Shown here: positions 4,768 to 64,000 of the stretch, piece after piece
How the letters are laid out: every line of letters begins with the position of its first letter
How positions within the stretch are numbered: position 1 is the first letter of the stretch
Assembly: GCA_030691735.1 (NCBI GenBank)
Contig: JAUYDS010000117.1
Location: 17,280 to 81,279, forward strand
DNA: 64,000 nucleotides
From: Candidatus Aminicenantes bacterium
GTDB lineage: Bacteria > Acidobacteriota > Aminicenantia > Aminicenantales > UBA4085
Direction: 5' to 3'
Notes under the pieces: model-generated
What the model saw: only the letters and a program-made list of their open reading frames with translations
Databases searched by the model: none
What the model was told of the DNA's origin: nothing
Position numbers and translations under genes: made by a program

Positions 4768-5386
4768 GTCCGGCGTCGAAGAACTCAAGGAATTCAAAGG
4801 CAAAAACTTAGAGGAGGCCATCGGTTACGCCGAGCACAAGCTGAAGATTCTCCGCTCGGAGTTCAACTACGAGATCGTTACCGAAAAGACCAAACTGTTC
4901 GGGATCAGCAAGGAGATCGTCATTCGTGTCTGGCCGAAGATCGAAGCCGAAGAGAACGCCGTTACCGATTTTCTCAAGAAGCTACTCCAGGTCTTTCCCC
5001 TCGACCTCGACTACCAGGTCAAGAAAAAGAACGGCTTCGTCTTCGTCGTCTTCGACGGCGAGGACAAGCAGATCCTCCTCTGGAAAGACGGGGCCCTTCT
5101 GCTGGCCTTGCAGCATGTCCTGAACAAGGTCTCCAATCAAAAAGTCCAGGTCGACTGTGAGTTTTTCCGGAAAAGAAAAGAGAAGAGACTCCGCGAATAC
5201 GCCCAGGATGTCGCCCGTCAGGTCAGTGATACCGGCCGGAACGAGATTCTGGACCTCATGAATCCCTACGAGCGACGGATTGTCCATATCGCCGTCAACC
5301 AGGTCCCGGGCCTAACCAGCGAAAGCCTGGGCGACGGTTTTCTGAAGCGGGTCAAGATCTTTCCCATCGGCAAGCAGGGCAAATAA
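4745..5386 (+). CDS. jag: Jag/KhpB family RNA-binding protein (Jag_N, KH, R3H domains)
   Basis: Follows yidC as in most bacteria; C-terminal R3H-like region (RRIVHIAVNQ..). Start could be 4736 or 4745. Confidence 0.7.
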   Translation: MENQEKNESGVEELKEFKGKNLEEAIGYAEHKLKILRSEFNYEIVTEKTKLFGISKEIVIRVWPKIEAEENAVTDFLKKLLQVFPLDLDYQVKKKNGFVFVVFDGEDKQILLWKDGALLLALQHVLNKVSNQKVQVDCEFFRKRKEKRLREYAQDVARQVSDTGRNEILDLMNPYERRIVHIAVNQVPGLTSESLGDGFLKRVKIFPIGKQGK

Positions 5387-5387
5387 A

Positions 5388-5556
5388 GGGCTCGCTCGAA
5401 GCGGGCAAACGCTCTCTTAGTCGCGGGTCCTGTCACCGATCAGCCCAGCCGGACTCGCTCATCACCCACCTTCGGGGGGTCCCATTCGCTTCGTCCGGCC
5501 GGGCGCCCGATCGGTGCCACCCGTAAATAGAGCGTTTGCCCGTTTCTTCGCTCGCG
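5388..5556. repeat. MITE-like inverted-repeat element 1 (about 169 bp) bounded by about 28-nt terminal inverted repeats
   Basis: Left end gggctcgctcgaagcgggcaaacgctctc (5388-5416) is the near reverse complement of the right end agagcgtttgcccgtttcttcgctcgcg (5529-5556). The interior folds into a long imperfect hairpin (caccgatc/gatcggtg, agccgg/ccggc). Confidence 0.5.
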
Positions 5557-5651
5557 TATTTCTTTAGTTATTCGGGATGGCCGATGCGGCGACAGGGTGG
5601 CCCCCGGCCCCCTGGGGAACCAGTCGCTTCCCGATCAATGCGTGGGATTAT

Positions 5652-5729
5652 GCTCGTTGGAAGGAAGGCAGGGAGCGAAGCGACCGTTGGAAGGAAACCC
5701 GCTCAAAGGGTTTCCTTCCAAGAGTGACC
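5652..5729. repeat. palindromic repeat family P, copy 1 (gctcgTTGGAAGGAAggcagggagcgaagcgaccgTTGGAAGGAAACCCgctcaaaGGGTTTCCTTCCAAgagtgacc)
   Basis: Near-identical copies at 6077-6154 and 22917-23006. Core is a 14-bp stem (ttggaaggaaaccc / gggtttccttccaa) with a 7-nt loop, plus an upstream direct repeat of ttggaagga. Confidence 0.65.
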
Positions 5730-5936
5730 CGTCGGTTCCCCCCATCGGCCTTGCCGATGGGGCCCCCCTCCGCTATGGGGTCCTTAGGGCCAACCCTGCC
5801 GTCGCGTCCTTTATTCTCGCACCGGAAAAACCGAAATGCAGCCGCGATATTTCTTGTGATCGCATCGGCTTCCTCCCCTCGCCCGGGATGAAAAAAATAG
5901 TTCATGATGATGGGGAAACGCATTGTTTTCGCCTTT

Positions 5937-6363
5937 GACGAGCGAAGAAGCGGGCGAACGCTCTTTTCACGGATTGAGCCGAACGACAAGATCGGGAGAC
6001 GGCCGAAGCGACCATGGAGGGTTTAGCCTTTCCGAGCCGTCCTTCGAGGGAACTCCGAACAATGCGACGAACAAATGCTCCTTGGAAGGTTAGCAGGGAG
6101 CGCAGCGACCGTTGGAAGGAAACCCGTTCAAAGGGTTTCCTTCCAAGAGTGACCAGCCGGCCCGGAAGAGGCCGGCCGGCGAAGCATGTTTGAGCTTCCC
6201 GGCGCACTCCCGTAATGTCGGAAGCCGGGAAGCGAGTTCTGAGCCGCCGAGAAGAACGGCGAGGAAACGGCGTGAAAAACCCGAGTCGGGAGCGAAGCCG
6301 TTTTCCGATCTTGTCTGTATGCCCCGCCGACCAGAAAAGCGTTCGCCCACTTCGAGCGAGCCC
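5937..6363. repeat. MITE-like inverted-repeat element 2 (about 427 bp) with terminal inverted repeats related to element 1; carries palindromic repeat P copy 2 internally
   Basis: Left end gacgagcgaagaagcgggcgaacgctcttttc (5937-5968) versus right end agaaaagcgttcgcccacttcgagcgagccc (6334-6363). The ends are cross-related to the element-1 ends (RC of the element-2 right end approximates the element-1 left end). Confidence 0.45.
6077..6154. repeat. palindromic repeat family P, copy 2
   Basis: gctccttggaaggttagcagggagcgcagcgaccgttggaaggaaacccgttcaaagggtttccttccaagagtgacc; differs from copy 1 at only a few positions. Confidence 0.65.
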
Positions 6364-6402
6364 CTTTACTATTCGCTTCGTCTAAACTAAAATCCCATTC
6401 AA

Positions 6403-22069: not shown

Positions 22070-23197
22070 ATGACCCCGCGGCAGAGGATCGAGAGCCTGC
22101 TCGCCGGACGCCCCGCCGACCGTGTCCCATTCTGCCCGGCGGTCTATGAACATAAAGCCGCCCTCATCGGGACGACCCCGTCGCTCCTGAGCCGTGACCC
22201 AGGGCTTTTCGAGCGGGCCCTCATCCGGGAGGCCGAGCTTTACCGGCCGGACATGCTTGTCGTCGGCTGCGACGTCTACAACGTCGAGGCCGAGGCCGTC
22301 GGCGGCAAGGTCAGGTTCTATGATTCGAGCGACGTCCCTTCGATCGCGGAGCGGCCGGTCAAGGTCGGCGATGATATTTCCCGTCTGCGTTTCCCCGATC
22401 CCGAAAAGGACGGCCGGATGCCGGTCTGCCTGGAGGCCGGCGGGAGAATTCAGAAGCGATTCGGCCGGGAGATGTTCATCCGCGGCGCCCTCAGCGCGCC
22501 GTTCTCGATCGCCTGCGAGCTCGCCGGCGCCGAAGAGGTGCTGATGGCGCTCCTGGACGACCCCGCCTGGGTGTCGAAGCTCCTCTCTTTCTCGGCGGAG
22601 ATCGCCAAAACCTACGGCCGGGCGTACGTCGAGCGGGGGCTGGGGATCATCCTTTTTGATTCCCATGCCGCCCCGCCCCTGGTCTCTCCCTCGTTATATC
22701 GGAGCCTCATTCTGCCTCCGACGGCCGATGTCGTCGGCTATTTCCGTGAAGCTCTCGGCCTCCCTCTCGTTCCTTATATCATCGGCGGGGACACGTCCGG
22801 CATCCTCGAGGCGATCCTCGAGACGGGAACGAACAACATCCTCTGCGATTTCCGCGCCGACCTCTCGTCGTTCGTCGATCGCCTCGAGAACAGTCCGGAT
22901 CAATTCGTGGGCCAAAGCTCCTTGGAAGGAAGGCAGGGACGGCGGGCTCTTCCCGCCGGACCGTTGGAAGGAAACCCGACCAAAGGGTTTCCTTCCAAGA
23001 GTGACCGGCCGGTCCTGCTGCGGGCGAACCTCGATCCGCGCTTTCTGCTCAAGGCCTCGATCCCGGACATCCAGGCTAAAACGAGCGAGGTCCTGGCTAT
23101 CGGCCGCCGTCATCCCGGGTTCATCCTGGGGACCGGCATTCTGCCCTTCGATCTGCCTCCTGAAAAGGTCATGGCCGTCCGGGCCGTCCTCGAATAA
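22070..23197 (+). CDS. uroporphyrinogen-decarboxylase (URO-D) family protein (MtaA/CmuA-like methyltransferase fold) carrying an in-frame palindromic-repeat insertion
   Basis: 375 aa; URO-D-like N-terminus (RVPFCPAVYEHKAAL..). Residues about 283-313 (SSLEGRQGRRALPAGPLEGNPTKGFPSKSDRP) are encoded by repeat P copy 3. Confidence 0.6.
   Translation: MTPRQRIESLLAGRPADRVPFCPAVYEHKAALIGTTPSLLSRDPGLFERALIREAELYRPDMLVVGCDVYNVEAEAVGGKVRFYDSSDVPSIAERPVKVGDDISRLRFPDPEKDGRMPVCLEAGGRIQKRFGREMFIRGALSAPFSIACELAGAEEVLMALLDDPAWVSKLLSFSAEIAKTYGRAYVERGLGIILFDSHAAPPLVSPSLYRSLILPPTADVVGYFREALGLPLVPYIIGGDTSGILEAILETGTNNILCDFRADLSSFVDRLENSPDQFVGQSSLEGRQGRRALPAGPLEGNPTKGFPSKSDRPVLLRANLDPRFLLKASIPDIQAKTSEVLAIGRRHPGFILGTGILPFDLPPEKVMAVRAVLE
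22917..23006. repeat. palindromic repeat family P, copy 3 (inside the URO-D-like CDS, in frame)
   Basis: gctccttggaaggaaggcagggacggcgggctcttcccgccggaccgttggaaggaaacccgaccaaagggtttccttccaagagtgacc; has an extra internal mini-hairpin (ggcgggctcttcccgcc) relative to copies 1 and 2. Confidence 0.65.
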
Positions 23198-23274
23198 AAA
23201 AAATAAATCCTCATTTCCCTGCTAAAAAGAGGCCGAAGCATCGTCTTTATTAATGGTCCTAGACGAGAGCTCCC

Positions 23275-24015
23275 ATGGACATTCCTCCGGAAGACATCGA
23301 TGCCCCGATCGAGACGAACGGCGGCCATCGCCGCCGTCTGCGGGAAAAGTTTCTTCGCGCCGGCCTGAGCGCCTTTCTCGATTACGAGATCGTCGAACTC
23401 CTCCTGACCCTGGGGACGCCGCGGAAGGACTGCAAGGAACAGGCGAAAAGGGCGCTCAAAGAGTTCAAGTCTCTGCGCGGGGTGCTCGAGGCCGACGAAT
23501 ACGAACTGCAAAGGATCCGGGGCATCGGCGCTCACAACGTTTTCGGGATACGGCTCGTTCAGGAAGTGTCCCGCCGCTTTCTCAAGGACAAGATGTTGAG
23601 CCGGCCGTATGCCCGCTCGTCCCGCGAGGTCTTCGATTACCTCTATCATTCCCTCCGCGACCTCAAAAAGGAGCATTTCAAGGTCCTTTTCCTCGATCCG
23701 AAAAACCAGATCATCGAGGAGAAGACGCTGTTCGAGGGCACGGTGGACTCGTCGGCCGTCTACCCCCGGGAGATCATGAAGGACGCCCTTCGGACCAACG
23801 CGACCTCTCTCGTCTTCGTCCACAATCATCCTTCGGGAGACCCCGAACCGTCTCTCTGCGACCGGGAGATCACCAAGGAGCTCGTTTTCGCGGCCAGGGT
23901 CATGCAGCTCAAGGTGCTCGATCACATCGTCATCGGCAACAACTGTTACTTCAGCTTCGCCGACCGCGGGCTCATCGAGGATTGCAACCTGATGTTCCTC
24001 GGTTTGAATAAATAG
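23275..24015 (+). CDS. radC: RadC family protein (JAB/MPN domain, DNA repair-associated)
   Basis: 246 aa; N-terminal GHRRRLREKFL and C-terminal JAB motif (..LVFVHNHPSGDPEPS..DREIT..L). Confidence 0.8.
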   Translation: MDIPPEDIDAPIETNGGHRRRLREKFLRAGLSAFLDYEIVELLLTLGTPRKDCKEQAKRALKEFKSLRGVLEADEYELQRIRGIGAHNVFGIRLVQEVSRRFLKDKMLSRPYARSSREVFDYLYHSLRDLKKEHFKVLFLDPKNQIIEEKTLFEGTVDSSAVYPREIMKDALRTNATSLVFVHNHPSGDPEPSLCDREITKELVFAARVMQLKVLDHIVIGNNCYFSFADRGLIEDCNLMFLGLNK

Positions 24016-24361: not shown

Positions 24362-26032
24362 ATGAGCGACGAGAGCAAGCCCCGGGCCTCTTGGCGGCCG
24401 ATCGAGGAGATTGCCAAAAAGCTGGGCATTCGTCCCGAGTGTCTGGAGAAATACGGCAACTTCAAAGCCAAGGTCGATCTCGGGCCATCGCCTGAAAGCG
24501 TCGGGGGCTTAGGCCGGCTCATCCTCGTCACGGCCATGACCCCCACGCCCTCCGGCGAAGGGAAGACGACGACGGCCATCGGCCTGACCGACGCCCTGAA
24601 CCGGCTCGGCCGGAAGGCCGCGGCGGCCCTGCGTGAGCCGTCTTTGGGCCCCGTCTTCGGCATGAAGGGCGGGGCGACGGGGGGCGGAAAGGCTCACGTC
24701 GTTCCCAGCGACGACATCAACCTCCATTTCACGGGCGACATCCATGCCATCACTTCGGCCAACAATCTTCTAGCGGCCATGGTCGATAACCATGTCCAGT
24801 TCGAGCCGTCCTGCGGCCTTCTCGACGCCAAGAACGTCACTTGGAGGCGCGTTTTGGATATGAACGACCGGTCCCTACGGAACGTCATCTCCGGCATCGG
24901 AGAGACGTTCAACGGAATCGCGCTGGAGACGGGTTTTGATATCACCGCCGCCTCCGAGATCATGGCCATTTTTTGCCTGGCTCATGACCTCAAGGACCTC
25001 AAGGACCGGCTCGGCCGCATCCAGATCGGATACGCGTCCGACGGGAAGCCCGTCACGGCCGCCCAGGTCAAGGCCCAGGGCGCCATGGCCGCCCTGCTCA
25101 AGGACGCCATCCGGCCCAACCTCGTCCAGACCCGGGAGGGCTCGCCGGCCTTCATCCACGGCGGTCCGTTCGCCAACATCGCCCACGGCACGAACTCCGT
25201 GATCGCGACGAATATGGCCTTGCGTTTGGCCGATTTCGTGGTCACGGAATGCGGGTTCGCCTCCGATCTCGGCGCCGAGAAGTTCTTCGATATCGTCGTC
25301 CGGACGGGCGCCGTTCCCCCGCCTTCGGCCGTGGTCATCGTGGCTACCCTCCGCTCGCTCAAGTTCCACGGCGGGGTCAAACTGGAAGCGCTGAACGCGG
25401 AGAATACGGAGGCGATCGCCAAGGGATTCGAGAACCTCCAGAAGCACGTCGAGATCATCCGGCTCTTCGGCCTCCCCCCGGTCGTGGCCTTGAACAAATT
25501 CCCCGCGGACACGGAGAAAGAAGAGCGGCTCTTCGCCGATCTCTGCCGAAGGGAGAATGTCCGGTTCGCTCCGAGCGACGTCTTCGGCCGGGGAGGAGAG
25601 GGCGGCCTGGCCCTGGGAGAGGAAGTTCTCCGGGCGATCGAGCACGATCCCCGGGATTTCAGGTTCCTCTATCCGCTCGACACGCCGCTGGCCGACAAGA
25701 TCGAGACGATCGCCACGAAGATCTACGGCGCCGGCCGCGTCGCCCTCGAGGCCAAGGCCAGGCGGAAGCTCCAGAAATACGAGAGCGACGGCTTCGGCCG
25801 GTTCCCGGTCTGTATCGCCAAGACCCAGTATTCGCTCTCCGCCAACGCCAAGGCCCTCGGCCGACCGCGCGACTTCACGGTGACCGTCACGGACGCGTCG
25901 CTCAGCGCGGGCGCCGGCTTCGTGGTCGCCATGTGCGGCGAGATCATGACCATGCCCGGCCTGCCCAAGGTCCCCGCCGCCGAGAGGATCGACGTCACGG
26001 ACGACGGCGAGATCATGGGCATCCTGGGATAA
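24362..26032 (+). CDS. fhs: formate--tetrahydrofolate ligase
   Basis: Start at ATG 24362 (MSDESKPRASWRPIEEIAKKLGI..), since the ORF-track N-terminal extension has no counterpart in FTHFS; RBS gggaggg upstream. Diagnostic P-loop PTPSGEGKTTTAIGL. Confidence 0.85.
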   Translation: MSDESKPRASWRPIEEIAKKLGIRPECLEKYGNFKAKVDLGPSPESVGGLGRLILVTAMTPTPSGEGKTTTAIGLTDALNRLGRKAAAALREPSLGPVFGMKGGATGGGKAHVVPSDDINLHFTGDIHAITSANNLLAAMVDNHVQFEPSCGLLDAKNVTWRRVLDMNDRSLRNVISGIGETFNGIALETGFDITAASEIMAIFCLAHDLKDLKDRLGRIQIGYASDGKPVTAAQVKAQGAMAALLKDAIRPNLVQTREGSPAFIHGGPFANIAHGTNSVIATNMALRLADFVVTECGFASDLGAEKFFDIVVRTGAVPPPSAVVIVATLRSLKFHGGVKLEALNAENTEAIAKGFENLQKHVEIIRLFGLPPVVALNKFPADTEKEERLFADLCRRENVRFAPSDVFGRGGEGGLALGEEVLRAIEHDPRDFRFLYPLDTPLADKIETIATKIYGAGRVALEAKARRKLQKYESDGFGRFPVCIAKTQYSLSANAKALGRPRDFTVTVTDASLSAGAGFVVAMCGEIMTMPGLPKVPAAERIDVTDDGEIMGILG

Positions 26033-27266: not shown

Positions 27267-27283
27267 AAAGATGGGAACATGCT

Positions 27284-27315
27284 CCGAATTCTCCTGAATT
27301 CGGTAGGCGTCCCCG
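27284..27315. repeat. degenerate copy of repeat family R (ccgaattctcctgAATTCGGTAGGCGTCCCCG) immediately upstream of the SOD-like gene RBS
   Basis: 24/32 identity to the 24086 copy, including the CCGAATT-N6-AATTCGG mini-palindrome. Confidence 0.4.
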
Positions 27316-27331
27316 TCTTAAGGAGAACAGA

Positions 27332-28018
27332 ATGATCAAAAGACGCGAGTTCTTAAAGGCGACGGGCGTCGGCGGCGCGGCCGTTTTCGCCGGCGCCGAT
27401 CCGCTCTCAGGGCCCGCTTTCGGGCAGGATGTTAAAACTCAAGCGTACGCGGCCAAGGATTACGCCAGGCTCTTGGGAACACCCGGCTTCAGCGACGCTC
27501 TCCTCAAGAACCATTTCACCCTCTACCAGGGCTATGTCACGAACACGAACAAGGTTCTGGACGCGCTGGCCCAGATGCTCAAGGACGGGAAAACGGCCGC
27601 ACCCGAATTCGCCGAGCTCCGGCGGCGGCTCGGCTGGGAGTTCGACGGGATGCGCCTCCACGAGCTCTATTTCGAAAATCTGGGCGGAAAAAACGGGATC
27701 GACGCGGGCGGAAAACTGGCCAAAAAGATCACCGAGGATTTCGGCGGGTTCGAACCCTGGCAGAAGGATTTCAGGGCCGTGGGAGCGATGCGGGGAATCG
27801 GCTGGGCCGTCCTCTACCAGGATCCCGCGACCGGCCGGCTCATCGACTTCTGGATCAATGAGCACGACGGCGGTCATCCGGCGGGAGGCCGGCCTCTCCT
27901 GGTCATGGACGTCTTCGAGCACGCTTACATGATCGATTACGGGCTGAAAAAGGCGGACTATATCGAAGCGTTCTTCAAGGCCGTCGATTGGACGGCCGCC
28001 GAAGCGCGGTTGGCCTGA
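27332..28018 (+). CDS. Fe/Mn superoxide dismutase family protein with Tat signal peptide
   Basis: 228 aa; twin-arginine signal (KRREFLKATGVGGAAVFAGA); SOD C-terminal signature D.FEHAYMIDYG (compare D.WEHAYY.DY.N). The N-terminal His ligands are not obvious, so it may be a divergent SOD-like protein. Confidence 0.6.
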   Translation: MIKRREFLKATGVGGAAVFAGADPLSGPAFGQDVKTQAYAAKDYARLLGTPGFSDALLKNHFTLYQGYVTNTNKVLDALAQMLKDGKTAAPEFAELRRRLGWEFDGMRLHELYFENLGGKNGIDAGGKLAKKITEDFGGFEPWQKDFRAVGAMRGIGWAVLYQDPATGRLIDFWINEHDGGHPAGGRPLLVMDVFEHAYMIDYGLKKADYIEAFFKAVDWTAAEARLA

Positions 28019-28080
28019 TCTATGGTTAAAGCGATAAATATCCTTGTACGAGCGCCCAAGGGAAAAGCCGCGAATATAAT

Positions 28081-28250
28081 CCCCCCCCACCCCCCTTTAG
28101 CAAAGGGGGGGCTTGCTTTCCCTCCTTTCCTAAAGGGTAGGCGTGCTTCCCCCCCTTTCCTAAAGGGGGGGCTTGCTTTCCCCCCTTTAGCAAAGGGGGG
28201 GCTCGCTTTCCCCCCTTTACTAAAGGGGGGAGAAGGGGGGATTAGCCCCG
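28081..28250. repeat. tandem array of five about 30-nt GC-clamped hairpin units (C6-7 TTT NNN AAA G6-7 plus cttgctttc linker), preceded by a poly-C tract
   Basis: Units at about 28090, 28121, 28150, 28181, 28211: cccccctttagcaaaggggggg cttgctttc / cctcctttcctaaagggtagg cgtgcttc / ccccccctttcctaaaggggggg cttgctttc / ccccctttagcaaaggggggg ctcgctttc / ccccctttactaaagggggg agaagggggg. No spacers, so not CRISPR. Confidence 0.7.
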
Positions 28251-28308
28251 TCGCTCCCCGCGATGATGCATTGTTTCCAGCCTCCAGGTTCTTAAAAGGG
28301 CGGCGACC

Positions 28309-53177: not shown

Positions 53178-53340
53178 GGCTCCAGCCTCCTTTCGATGCG
53201 GACGGAAATAGCAGCGCCTGTTTAACGAATCAAGAACGCGACACGCGTAAATGGATCATCGCTGCTGTTAATTCAATAGCGGAATTATCCTTCCATATTC
53301 AGCCGGTGAAGTCAAGAAGGGCTCGAACCGATGGCCGGTG

Positions 53341-53390
53341 AATTCGCAGACACATACCGAATTCAATAATTCGGTATGCGTCTGCGAATT
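53341..53390. promoter_or_regulatory. 50-nt near-perfect palindrome (two inverted units of repeat family R) abutting a consensus TATAAT; candidate operator of the VKOR-DsbA gene (and/or divergent HMGCS operon)
   Basis: AATTCGCAGACACATACCGAATT caat AATTCGGTATGCGTCTGCGAATT; one mismatch between arms. TATAAT at 53399-53404, ATG at 53436 with an aaggagga RBS. Confidence 0.45.
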
Positions 53391-53435
53391 TCCAGTGGTA
53401 TAATACGCCTTCCAAGACGAACAAGGAGGAGAGGG

Positions 53436-63784: not shown

Positions 63785-63980
63785 GCAAAAAAAAACGCCC
63801 TGCCTTCCCCACGAAGGCGGGTATCGAGGCTTAAAGCAGGTCTCCTGACTCTCGGATCGTCCTCCTCCCGGGCCTTCCTATCCTCAGCGGAGGAAAGTGG
63901 CGTCGTCCGGGATTCGTCCCCGATCACAGTAGCGGGGGCTGTGTCCGCATTTCACGGACTTCCCTGGCATTTAAGCCTGA
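63785..63980 (-). ncRNA. cobalamin (B12) riboswitch with terminator-type expression platform
   Basis: On the minus strand: P1 ggcttaaa...tttaagcc; conserved core GGGAAGUCCGUGAAAUGCGGACACAGCCCCCGCUACUGUGA; B12 box GAGAGUCAGGAGACCUGC; then hairpin cccgccttcgtggggaaggcaggg plus U9 (plus-strand A-run 63787-63795) directly upstream of the btuB-like RBS. Confidence 0.75.
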
Positions 63981-64000
63981 AGAAATATTTATAGACCAAT

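Follow-up and report, generated by a model that had tools for sequence, protein, structure and literature searches.

Can a dispersed palindromic repeat enter a conserved enzyme gene in-frame without inactivating it, and what becomes of the peptide that it adds? This question is raised by a stretch of 64,000 nucleotides (nt) from Candidatus Aminicenantes bacterium (GenBank assembly GCA_030691735.1, contig JAUYDS010000117.1, positions 17,280 to 81,279 of the forward strand), referred to below as the window. In it, a gene of the URO-D/MtaA-like family contains a copy of a hairpin repeat that also lies twice in the jag-mnmE spacer. Our analysis indicates that a small non-autonomous repeat of Aminicenantes was very probably inserted in this URO-D gene in-frame and is carried as a passenger loop, with the host gene intact. 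Feature coordinates are collected in Table 1.

The window protein was aligned with 17 homologs and, in a second round, with 112; all belong to the URO-D family, and most are 339–345 amino acids (aa) long. Thirty-eight residues were missing from 16 of the 17 homologs (alignment A2) and from 111 of the 112 (alignment A3). The sole carrier was P0002, a protein from a sister lineage that is 87% identical to the window protein and carries the 38 residues in an identical position. The insert peptide, SPDQFVGQSSLEGRQGRRALPAGPLEGNPTKGFPSKSD, corresponds to residues 275–312 between ...DRLEN and RPVLLRANLDP..., and it starts at a codon boundary; the R-P after the insert are host residues. The nearest insert-less orthologs are 80–82% identical, and one of them (L005) lies in the same thyA-UROD-radC-FTHFS neighbourhood, a gene order common to the window and its relatives. 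Comparison of the empty site in L005 (AAGAAC|CGCCCC) with the filled site in the window (GAGAAC|AGTCCGG...GAGTGAC|CGGCCG) gave junctions at 22891/22892 and 23005/23006, with the predicted peptide stretch DRLENSPDQFVGQ there. An earlier note on this DNA had placed an insertion of about 30 codons at 22917–23006; its start was 25 nt late and its end included one host base. Aligning orthologs, as that note suggested, revealed homologs without exactly the repeat-derived residues, and the inserted DNA is homologous to the intergenic copies, indicating that it is not ancestral sequence. Furthermore, four contigs, each from a different sample, carry the URO-D gene of the sister lineage without a single nucleotide difference and in conserved synteny, which excludes an assembly artefact and indicates that the insertion is older than the divergence of the two lineages. 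The event appears to have been a gain of the repeat by the URO-D gene.

The 35-nt core of the repeat (TTGGAAGGAAACCC-N7-GGGTTTCCTTCCAA) was found at three places in the window and had no match in 100 shuffles. An nhmmer profile based on 70 copies from other genomes likewise matched exactly three places, namely the two copies in the jag-mnmE spacer (E = 7e-34 and 2e-30) and 22888–23019 in the URO-D gene (E = 5.9e-28). The last match covers model positions 15–134, including the core and the left arm ATGCTCCTTGGAAGGAAGGCAGGGA, so that the claim of a shared repeat in spacer and gene was borne out. Similarity among copies reaches well to the left of the palindrome. The unit is about 100–102 nt long, or 114 nt in the URO-D variant, and not 78–90 nt as first thought; only the 35-nt core is palindromic, and it is joined to a conserved left arm of about 60 nt. 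All three copies had also been described as open in the same frame. This holds for the part encoding LEGNPxKGFPSKSD; the left half of copy 2 is closed by a TAG.

The host gene is intact and encodes a full-length member of its family. The Pfam profile URO-D (PF01208) matched residues 2–370 of the 375-aa protein in a single stretch (profile positions 1–339 of 346; E = 7.6e-39), in accord with the view that the flanks read as a URO-D fold on both sides of the insert. All 50 of the family-invariant columns in the 113-sequence alignment were kept in the window protein. An AlphaFold2 model had the triosephosphate isomerase (TIM)-barrel fold of URO-D/MtaA proteins, with a mean predicted local distance difference test score (pLDDT) of 90.2 and a predicted template modelling score of 0.87. 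The best Foldseek match in the Protein Data Bank was the MtaA-like methyltransferase 4ay7_A (E = 4.8e-19, TM score 0.86), followed by many uroporphyrinogen decarboxylases. The pLDDT fell below 50 solely at residues 278–311, between helix 265–273 and strand 316–320, so that the insert stands out as a low-confidence loop in a confident model, an outcome of the proposed structural check that favours the earlier reading. The insert peptide is hydrophilic, with a grand average of hydropathy (GRAVY) of -1.04. In (beta/alpha)8 barrels, the helix-to-strand loops sit on the face opposite the catalytic one, and the order of secondary-structure elements suggests that the insert loop is non-catalytic in position. 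Together with the divergence data given next, this shows a constrained host enzyme, with the insert as a floppy hydrophilic loop that is predicted to be disordered.

To compare selection on the two parts of the gene, non-synonymous (dN) and synonymous (dS) divergence between the window and the sister lineage was determined for the flanks (1014 sites) and the insert (114 sites). The flanks differed at 128 sites, distributed over codon positions 1, 2 and 3 as 34, 18 and 76, whereas the insert differed at 8 sites, distributed as 2, 4 and 2. In the flanks, dS was 0.37 and dN was 0.07 (dN/dS = 0.19), showing that the flanks of the URO-D gene are under clear purifying selection. In the insert, dS was 0.077 and dN was 0.073 (dN/dS about 0.94); its changes comprised 6 non-synonymous and 2 synonymous ones, and 5 of the 38 residues differ between the lineages. 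The non-synonymous rate of the insert therefore equals that of the flanks. Because the insert has no third-position bias and a dN/dS of about 0.9, the peptide looks like a tolerated passenger and not an exapted one, and it would be neutral. What is conserved in the insert is the nucleotide sequence and the hairpin, not the codons, and the amino acids are without visible selection. The slow synonymous change, together with a second-hairpin variant that the sister-lineage URO-D copy shares with another copy (see below), points to gene conversion among copies, to selection on the hairpin, or to both; with two lineages only, these cannot be separated here.

The repeat is widespread in Aminicenantes. 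A core-pattern scan of the GTDB species-representative genomes gave 81 perfect-core copies at 76 loci in 6 Aminicenantes metagenome-assembled genomes (MAGs), with one bin labelled Eubacteriales; about 30 of the 76 loci lie on the complete 4.28-Mb chromosome OY970261.1. The same scan of JGI metagenomes gave at least 131 copies in at least 120 loci, and no copy was found in viral contigs. In the 1.58 Mb of Aminicenantes DNA that was fetched, nhmmer detected 255 copies, the core being imperfect in 40. The unit length of about 100 nt was deduced from tandem arrays with a period of 100–101 nt (L018 and L051); head-to-tail arrays of 2–3 units with a period of 100–103 nt occur at L018:4621-4853 and L051:449-679 (both OY970261.1) and in L084, L098 and L149. 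Copies are oriented: the left arm reads ...ATGCTCCTTGGAAGGAAGGCAGGGAGCGAAGCGA(C/G)CG, the right end CCAAGAGTG(T/A)CC. The core is flanked in essentially all copies by ...GCGA(C/G)CG|TTGG on the 5' side and CCAA|GAGTG on the 3' side, and the repeat ends with CCSGATCAAT... on one side and ...AAGAGTGACC on the other. Among 29 distinct imperfect cores, 30 double changes in the stem keep pairing and 3 break it, counts that do not represent independent events because subfamilies inherit changes. Both strands of the repeat fold with z of about -3. Four of the six frames are open in the family consensus. Of 215 copies, only 91 have the frame used in the URO-D gene open over the whole element; the others are closed mostly by a variable TAA or TGA immediately ahead of ATGCTCC.

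The URO-D copy belongs to a subfamily characterized by a left end ...CCGGATCAATTCG, a right end GTGACC and a 12-nt variant that makes the second hairpin. This variant also occurs in the copies within PriA, the permease and the L001 FTHFS and in those of loci L131 and L184, indicating that it characterizes the subfamily and did not arise by mutation at this one site. In the sister lineage, the second hairpin of the URO-D copy reads GGCGGGG-CTT-CCCCGCC, and the URO-D and FTHFS copies of that lineage share the variant GGCGGGGCTTCCCCGCC. With regard to known signals, no Rfam model was matched at the gathering score, and the hits in the spacer were no better than chance. Promoter and terminator scans gave no promoter-like signal, no terminator-like site in 22700–23300 and no T-run after the hairpin.

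Several features of the surroundings of the repeat were also observed. The jag-mnmE spacer (window 5387–6402) is unusually long (about 1 kb) and holds, in addition to the two repeat copies, GAAGCGGGCRAACGCTCT four times, arranged as inverted pairs that are nested (5398/5526 and 5947/6335), with longer arms at 5385–5423/6328–6366 and 5508–5554/5939–5985. Window positions 5475–5825 are 91% identical to L157:474-823, so that copy 1 is part of a larger repeated unit. At seven loci (L010, L028, L034, L055, L057, L065 and L070), the repeat lies between 24-bp inverted repeats, GGGGTCAAACCTACTCATTACGCA ... TGCGTAATGAGTAGGTTTGACCCC, which resemble a second element of the MITE type (from miniature inverted-repeat transposable element) enclosing it. 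At L124:9149-9179, a copy lies directly 5' of a gene that is oxidoreductase-like and encodes a twin-arginine signal (RRDFLK). The right end of the repeat, AAGAGTGACC, contains a GTG that is in frame with this gene as a possible start codon, and the repeat may therefore supply a translation start.

In-frame copies were also sought in other genes. Every copy was examined for a reading frame that stays open across it and has coding-like flanks, and the candidates were then checked by Pfam, orthologs and solved structures. This gave five further host genes in related genomes, encoding FTHFS, Mfd, PriA, an amino-acid permease of the APC family and a conserved protein of unknown function (Table 1). 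Empty-site orthologs were available for three of the five (FTHFS, Mfd and the L153 protein). Among the six intragenic copies, three are in sense and three in antisense orientation, three of the six repeat frames are used, and all six insert peptides are hydrophilic (GRAVY -0.2 to -1.5). All come from contigs with a GC content of about 0.60 and from the subfamily of the window copy. The search for further copies proposed in the earlier note thus yielded an in-frame intragenic minority, with about 6 distinct host genes for about 255 copies (about 2%), or roughly a third of the few copies of the subfamily. Its description of the repeat as frame-tolerant and mobile agrees with the five further copies, the three frames, the two orientations and the filled and empty orthologous sites. 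Because the sister lineages differ in the FTHFS insertion and an intergenic site is filled in L016 and empty in the window, the repeat has been active since those lineages split. The L016 spacer (L016:2786-3580, from the PFL34 MAG) is about 600 nt longer than its counterpart at window 53203–53396 and carries a repeat copy at L016:3082. Two of the six hosts, PriA (L104) and Mfd (L129), are replication-restart or repair genes, and six hosts are too few to test for a trend.

The same test applied to the 81 copies of the genome collection gave no convincing intragenic copy. L068 was rejected because the copy lies between rplI and dnaB, and many long open reading frames (ORFs) over copies, for example those in L040, L124, L169, L180, L012 and P0126, were rejected as antisense shadows or in-frame 5' leaders of real genes. 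Peptide searches with four consensus frames and with the three frames of the window returned only short spurious ORFs and did not recover the window's own protein; they say little, because the word index is insensitive to chimeric queries. A profile of two window peptides searched against 1.84 billion representatives also returned only short ORFs; clustering at 50% identity in that library hides insert-bearing variants behind insert-less representatives.

These results can be combined as follows. A repeat native to a clade of Aminicenantes would have been copied into the URO-D gene in the common ancestor of the two lineages, perhaps by transposition in trans or by recombination or gene conversion between copies. 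As 114 nt is a multiple of three and no stop lies in the frame that was hit, translation would run through, adding 38 hydrophilic residues rich in Gly, Pro, Ser and Arg. These residues would fall in a turn of the TIM barrel that normally has three residues, and since the loop is predicted to be disordered, the enzyme would tolerate it. The rest of the URO-D gene has been under purifying selection since the insertion. Insertions in genes would normally be lost, and the survivors would be those that are a multiple of three in length (102, 114 or 72 nt here), free of stops and situated in loops, to be carried thereafter as passenger peptides.

Some observations weigh against this passenger explanation. 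The exact ends of the insert are uncertain by about 4–6 nt, because CC(C/G)G is present at both junctions and the right end of the repeat resembles the host CGGCCG; in several copies this tetranucleotide adjoins either end, and it may represent a target preference, a 4-bp duplication or a piece of the element itself. Comparison of the junctions of copies gave no clear terminal inverted repeat and no demonstrable target-site duplication. An all-against-all search of ORFs in the ±4-kb flanks of the genome loci gave no multi-copy transposase-like ORF family beside the copies. The putative placement of the loop relative to the active site derives from secondary-structure order in the model, and the whole evidence base consists of MAGs and metagenome contigs. 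Finally, 2 of about 27 synonymous sites have changed in the insert, fewer in proportion than in the flanks (78 of about 266 sites; Fisher p = 0.012, nominal), so that the insert is not simply neutral DNA and some constraint at the nucleotide level, or gene conversion, acts on it.

This last point also speaks for the idea that the insert is kept because its nucleic-acid hairpin acts in place, for example by slowing ribosomes, as a mark for mRNA processing or by offering a hairpin-recognising enzyme a place to bind or cut, with the peptide as a by-product. In accord with such a role, synonymous sites of the insert are about 5 times less diverged than those of the flanks, the second hairpin differs by about 4 changes between the lineages with its pairing kept or extended, the core stem shows the excess of pairing-keeping double changes given above, and both strands fold. 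However, the intragenic copies lie in both orientations in unrelated genes, with no terminator- or promoter-like signal and no Rfam family, and gene conversion could equally explain the low divergence and the seemingly compensatory pattern, as the hairpin variant shared by the sister-lineage URO-D and FTHFS copies illustrates. The counts are also small, and subfamily inheritance inflates the stem statistics. We therefore consider a local hairpin function unlikely. True exaptation, in which the 38-residue loop would provide an interaction or regulatory surface maintained by amino-acid selection, could account for both lineages having kept the insert in place after a split that corresponds to a flank dS of 0.37. 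It appears very unlikely to us, given the dN/dS and the absence of third-position bias in the insert, its predicted disorder, and the reading of the repeat in three different frames in other hosts, which means that no particular peptide is required. The earlier proposal that the repeat was exapted without inactivating its host therefore stands as regards the intact host and not as regards exaptation in the strict sense. It is hardly credible that the repeat has disrupted the gene and left it a decaying pseudogene, that the segment is ancestral and was lost elsewhere, or that it arose in assembly. The presence of foreign-looking DNA in the ORF is all that speaks for these ideas, but the 375-codon frame is intact in two lineages with constrained flanks and all invariant residues, the segment is homologous to intergenic repeats and missing even from the nearest orthologs, and the same junctions are found in the MAG of the window and in four independent contigs.

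Comparable elements are known from other bacteria. Rickettsia palindromic elements (RPE; Ogata et al. 2000/2002) are 105–150 bp long and lie in-frame in conserved genes, with 19 to 44 ORFs affected and a gmk product that is active with its insert (PMC10969869, PMC2229807). Like them, the Aminicenantes element is a dispersed palindromic repeat of about 100–150 bp that is found both between genes and in-frame in conserved housekeeping genes (six hosts here), adds tens of residues compatible with fold and function, has several usable frames and enters unrelated enzymes. It differs in belonging to an unrelated, free-living and uncultivated phylum with about 60% GC, presumably in sequence, and in structure: it has one internal 14-bp hairpin and a conserved arm, whereas the two ends do not form a long stem as the terminal inverted repeats of RPE do (about 12 bp). 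End pairing is weak, and the ends share at most 7–8 imperfect bases. The intragenic share is also far lower overall, though not in the subfamily of the window. We therefore regard the repeat as working like an RPE without filing it as one of RPE-1 to RPE-10, which belong to the genus Rickettsia; copies of the present repeat were found only in Aminicenantes MAGs or metagenomes.

Intragenic repetitive extragenic palindromic (REP) sequences provide a second comparison. In several other bacteria, a minority of the GTAG- and CGTC-tagged REPs sits inside genes for known proteins, many of which act in replication or repair (Di Nocera et al. 2013; PMC3733652). A palindromic core of 20–40 bp, many mostly extragenic copies and occasional arrays are features that the present repeat shares, with its 35-nt core, and PriA and Mfd among the six hosts match the remark on replication and repair (PMC3733652). 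Neither GTAG nor CGTC stands beside the stem, the 5' flank being GA(C/G)CG, and the conserved unit, at about 100 nt, far exceeds a REP in length. Among bacterial MITEs, those with open frames include ERIC/RU-1, the 107-bp form of Correia and YPAL (PMC2229807). The repeat resembles these in its small size, many copies, lack of coding capacity for a transposase, in-frame host fusions and filled and empty orthologous sites, the latter for URO-D, FTHFS, Mfd, the L153 protein and the intergenic site of L016. It may differ from MITEs in its terminal inverted repeats, which are at best 7–8 imperfect bases long (CCGGATCA / TGACCGG), without TA at the termini. The hairpin corresponds neither to an intrinsic terminator nor to a known RNA family, and our literature search found no description of repeats like these in Aminicenantes.

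A bolder extension, which we regard as doubtful, is that the repeat is an independent Aminicenantes counterpart of the 'protein-coding palindromes' of Rickettsia whose hairpin is actively maintained inside ORFs and serviced by a hairpin-recognising enzyme, such as a REP-associated tyrosine transposase (RAYT) or an IS200/IS605-type enzyme, or by gene conversion. On this extension, about a third of the copies in the high-GC lineage of the window would be intragenic, with a bias to replication and repair genes. Active maintenance is suggested by the suppressed synonymous divergence, the pairing-preserving changes and the homogenisation within genomes.

In-frame colonisation of housekeeping genes by palindromic repeats has been discussed mostly for Rickettsia and a few REP-rich bacteria. 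The present element is a new repeat family, in a new host phylum, for the known phenomenon of selfish DNA inside proteins. It offers a clean and datable case in an uncultivated free-living phylum, in which sister lineages share the URO-D insertion and differ in the FTHFS insertion. It could serve as a natural system for studying the tolerance of proteins to random loop insertions, the rate at which such peptides drift, and whether a DNA or RNA hairpin is itself selected within coding sequence. Such inserts also inflate protein lengths and can mislead the annotation and clustering of Aminicenantes proteins.

Table 1. Repeat copies, host genes and other features in the window (positions without prefix) and in related genomes (positions or loci with prefix L)
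Feature	Position or locus	Strand or orientation	Evidence and remarks
Inserted repeat copy, 114 nt, 38 codons (S275-D312), phase 0 with host frame	22892..23005	+	Ortholog gaps, DNA junctions, profile match, low pLDDT
Host gene, URO-D/MtaA-like family protein, 375 aa, intact ORF	22070..23197	+	ORF list, Pfam, AlphaFold2 model, synteny
Core palindrome of inserted copy, 14-bp stem, 7-nt loop	22964..22998	.	Pattern match; fold -23.9 kcal/mol
Second small hairpin GGCGGG-CTCTT-CCCGCC, from 12-nt subfamily-specific segment	22941..22957	.	Alignment with other copies
Intergenic copy 1, jag-mnmE spacer, core 5687-5721	5625..5738	+	Pattern match, alignment, profile
Intergenic copy 2, jag-mnmE spacer, core 6112-6146; TAG 6091-6093 closes URO-D frame	6053..6163	+	Pattern match, profile
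Empty site in window FTHFS gene, codes GPSPESVGGL	24482..24511	+	Protein and DNA alignment with L001; two genes downstream of URO-D
In-frame copy in FTHFS (sister lineage)	L001:12181-12306	sense, WKE frame	nhmmer match inside called gene; 38 codons gained net; window ortholog empty
In-frame copy in Mfd	L129	sense	L089 ortholog without 34 aa; Pfam TRCF domain cut at profile position 75/95
In-frame copy in conserved protein of unknown function	L153	antisense	63%-identical L020 ortholog without 24 aa
In-frame copy in PriA	L104	antisense	Flanked by Pfam 3'BD and zinc-ribbon domains; longer than solved PriA by about 42 residues
In-frame copy in APC-family amino-acid permease	L175	antisense	About 41 extra residues in loop before last two helices vs 6f2g; domain cut at profile position 381/427
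Cobalamin riboswitch	63818-63995	-	Rfam RF00174, 94.3 bits, full length

Apart from the repeat, the window has at 28090–28239 (within 27276–28308) a tandem array of five units of 30 nt, every one of which is a small hairpin (CCCCCCTTTnnnAAAGGGGGGGCTTGCTTT). The segment of about 1 kb that comprises this array and an ORF at 27332–28018 is missing in the sister lineage, where recA adjoins corA.

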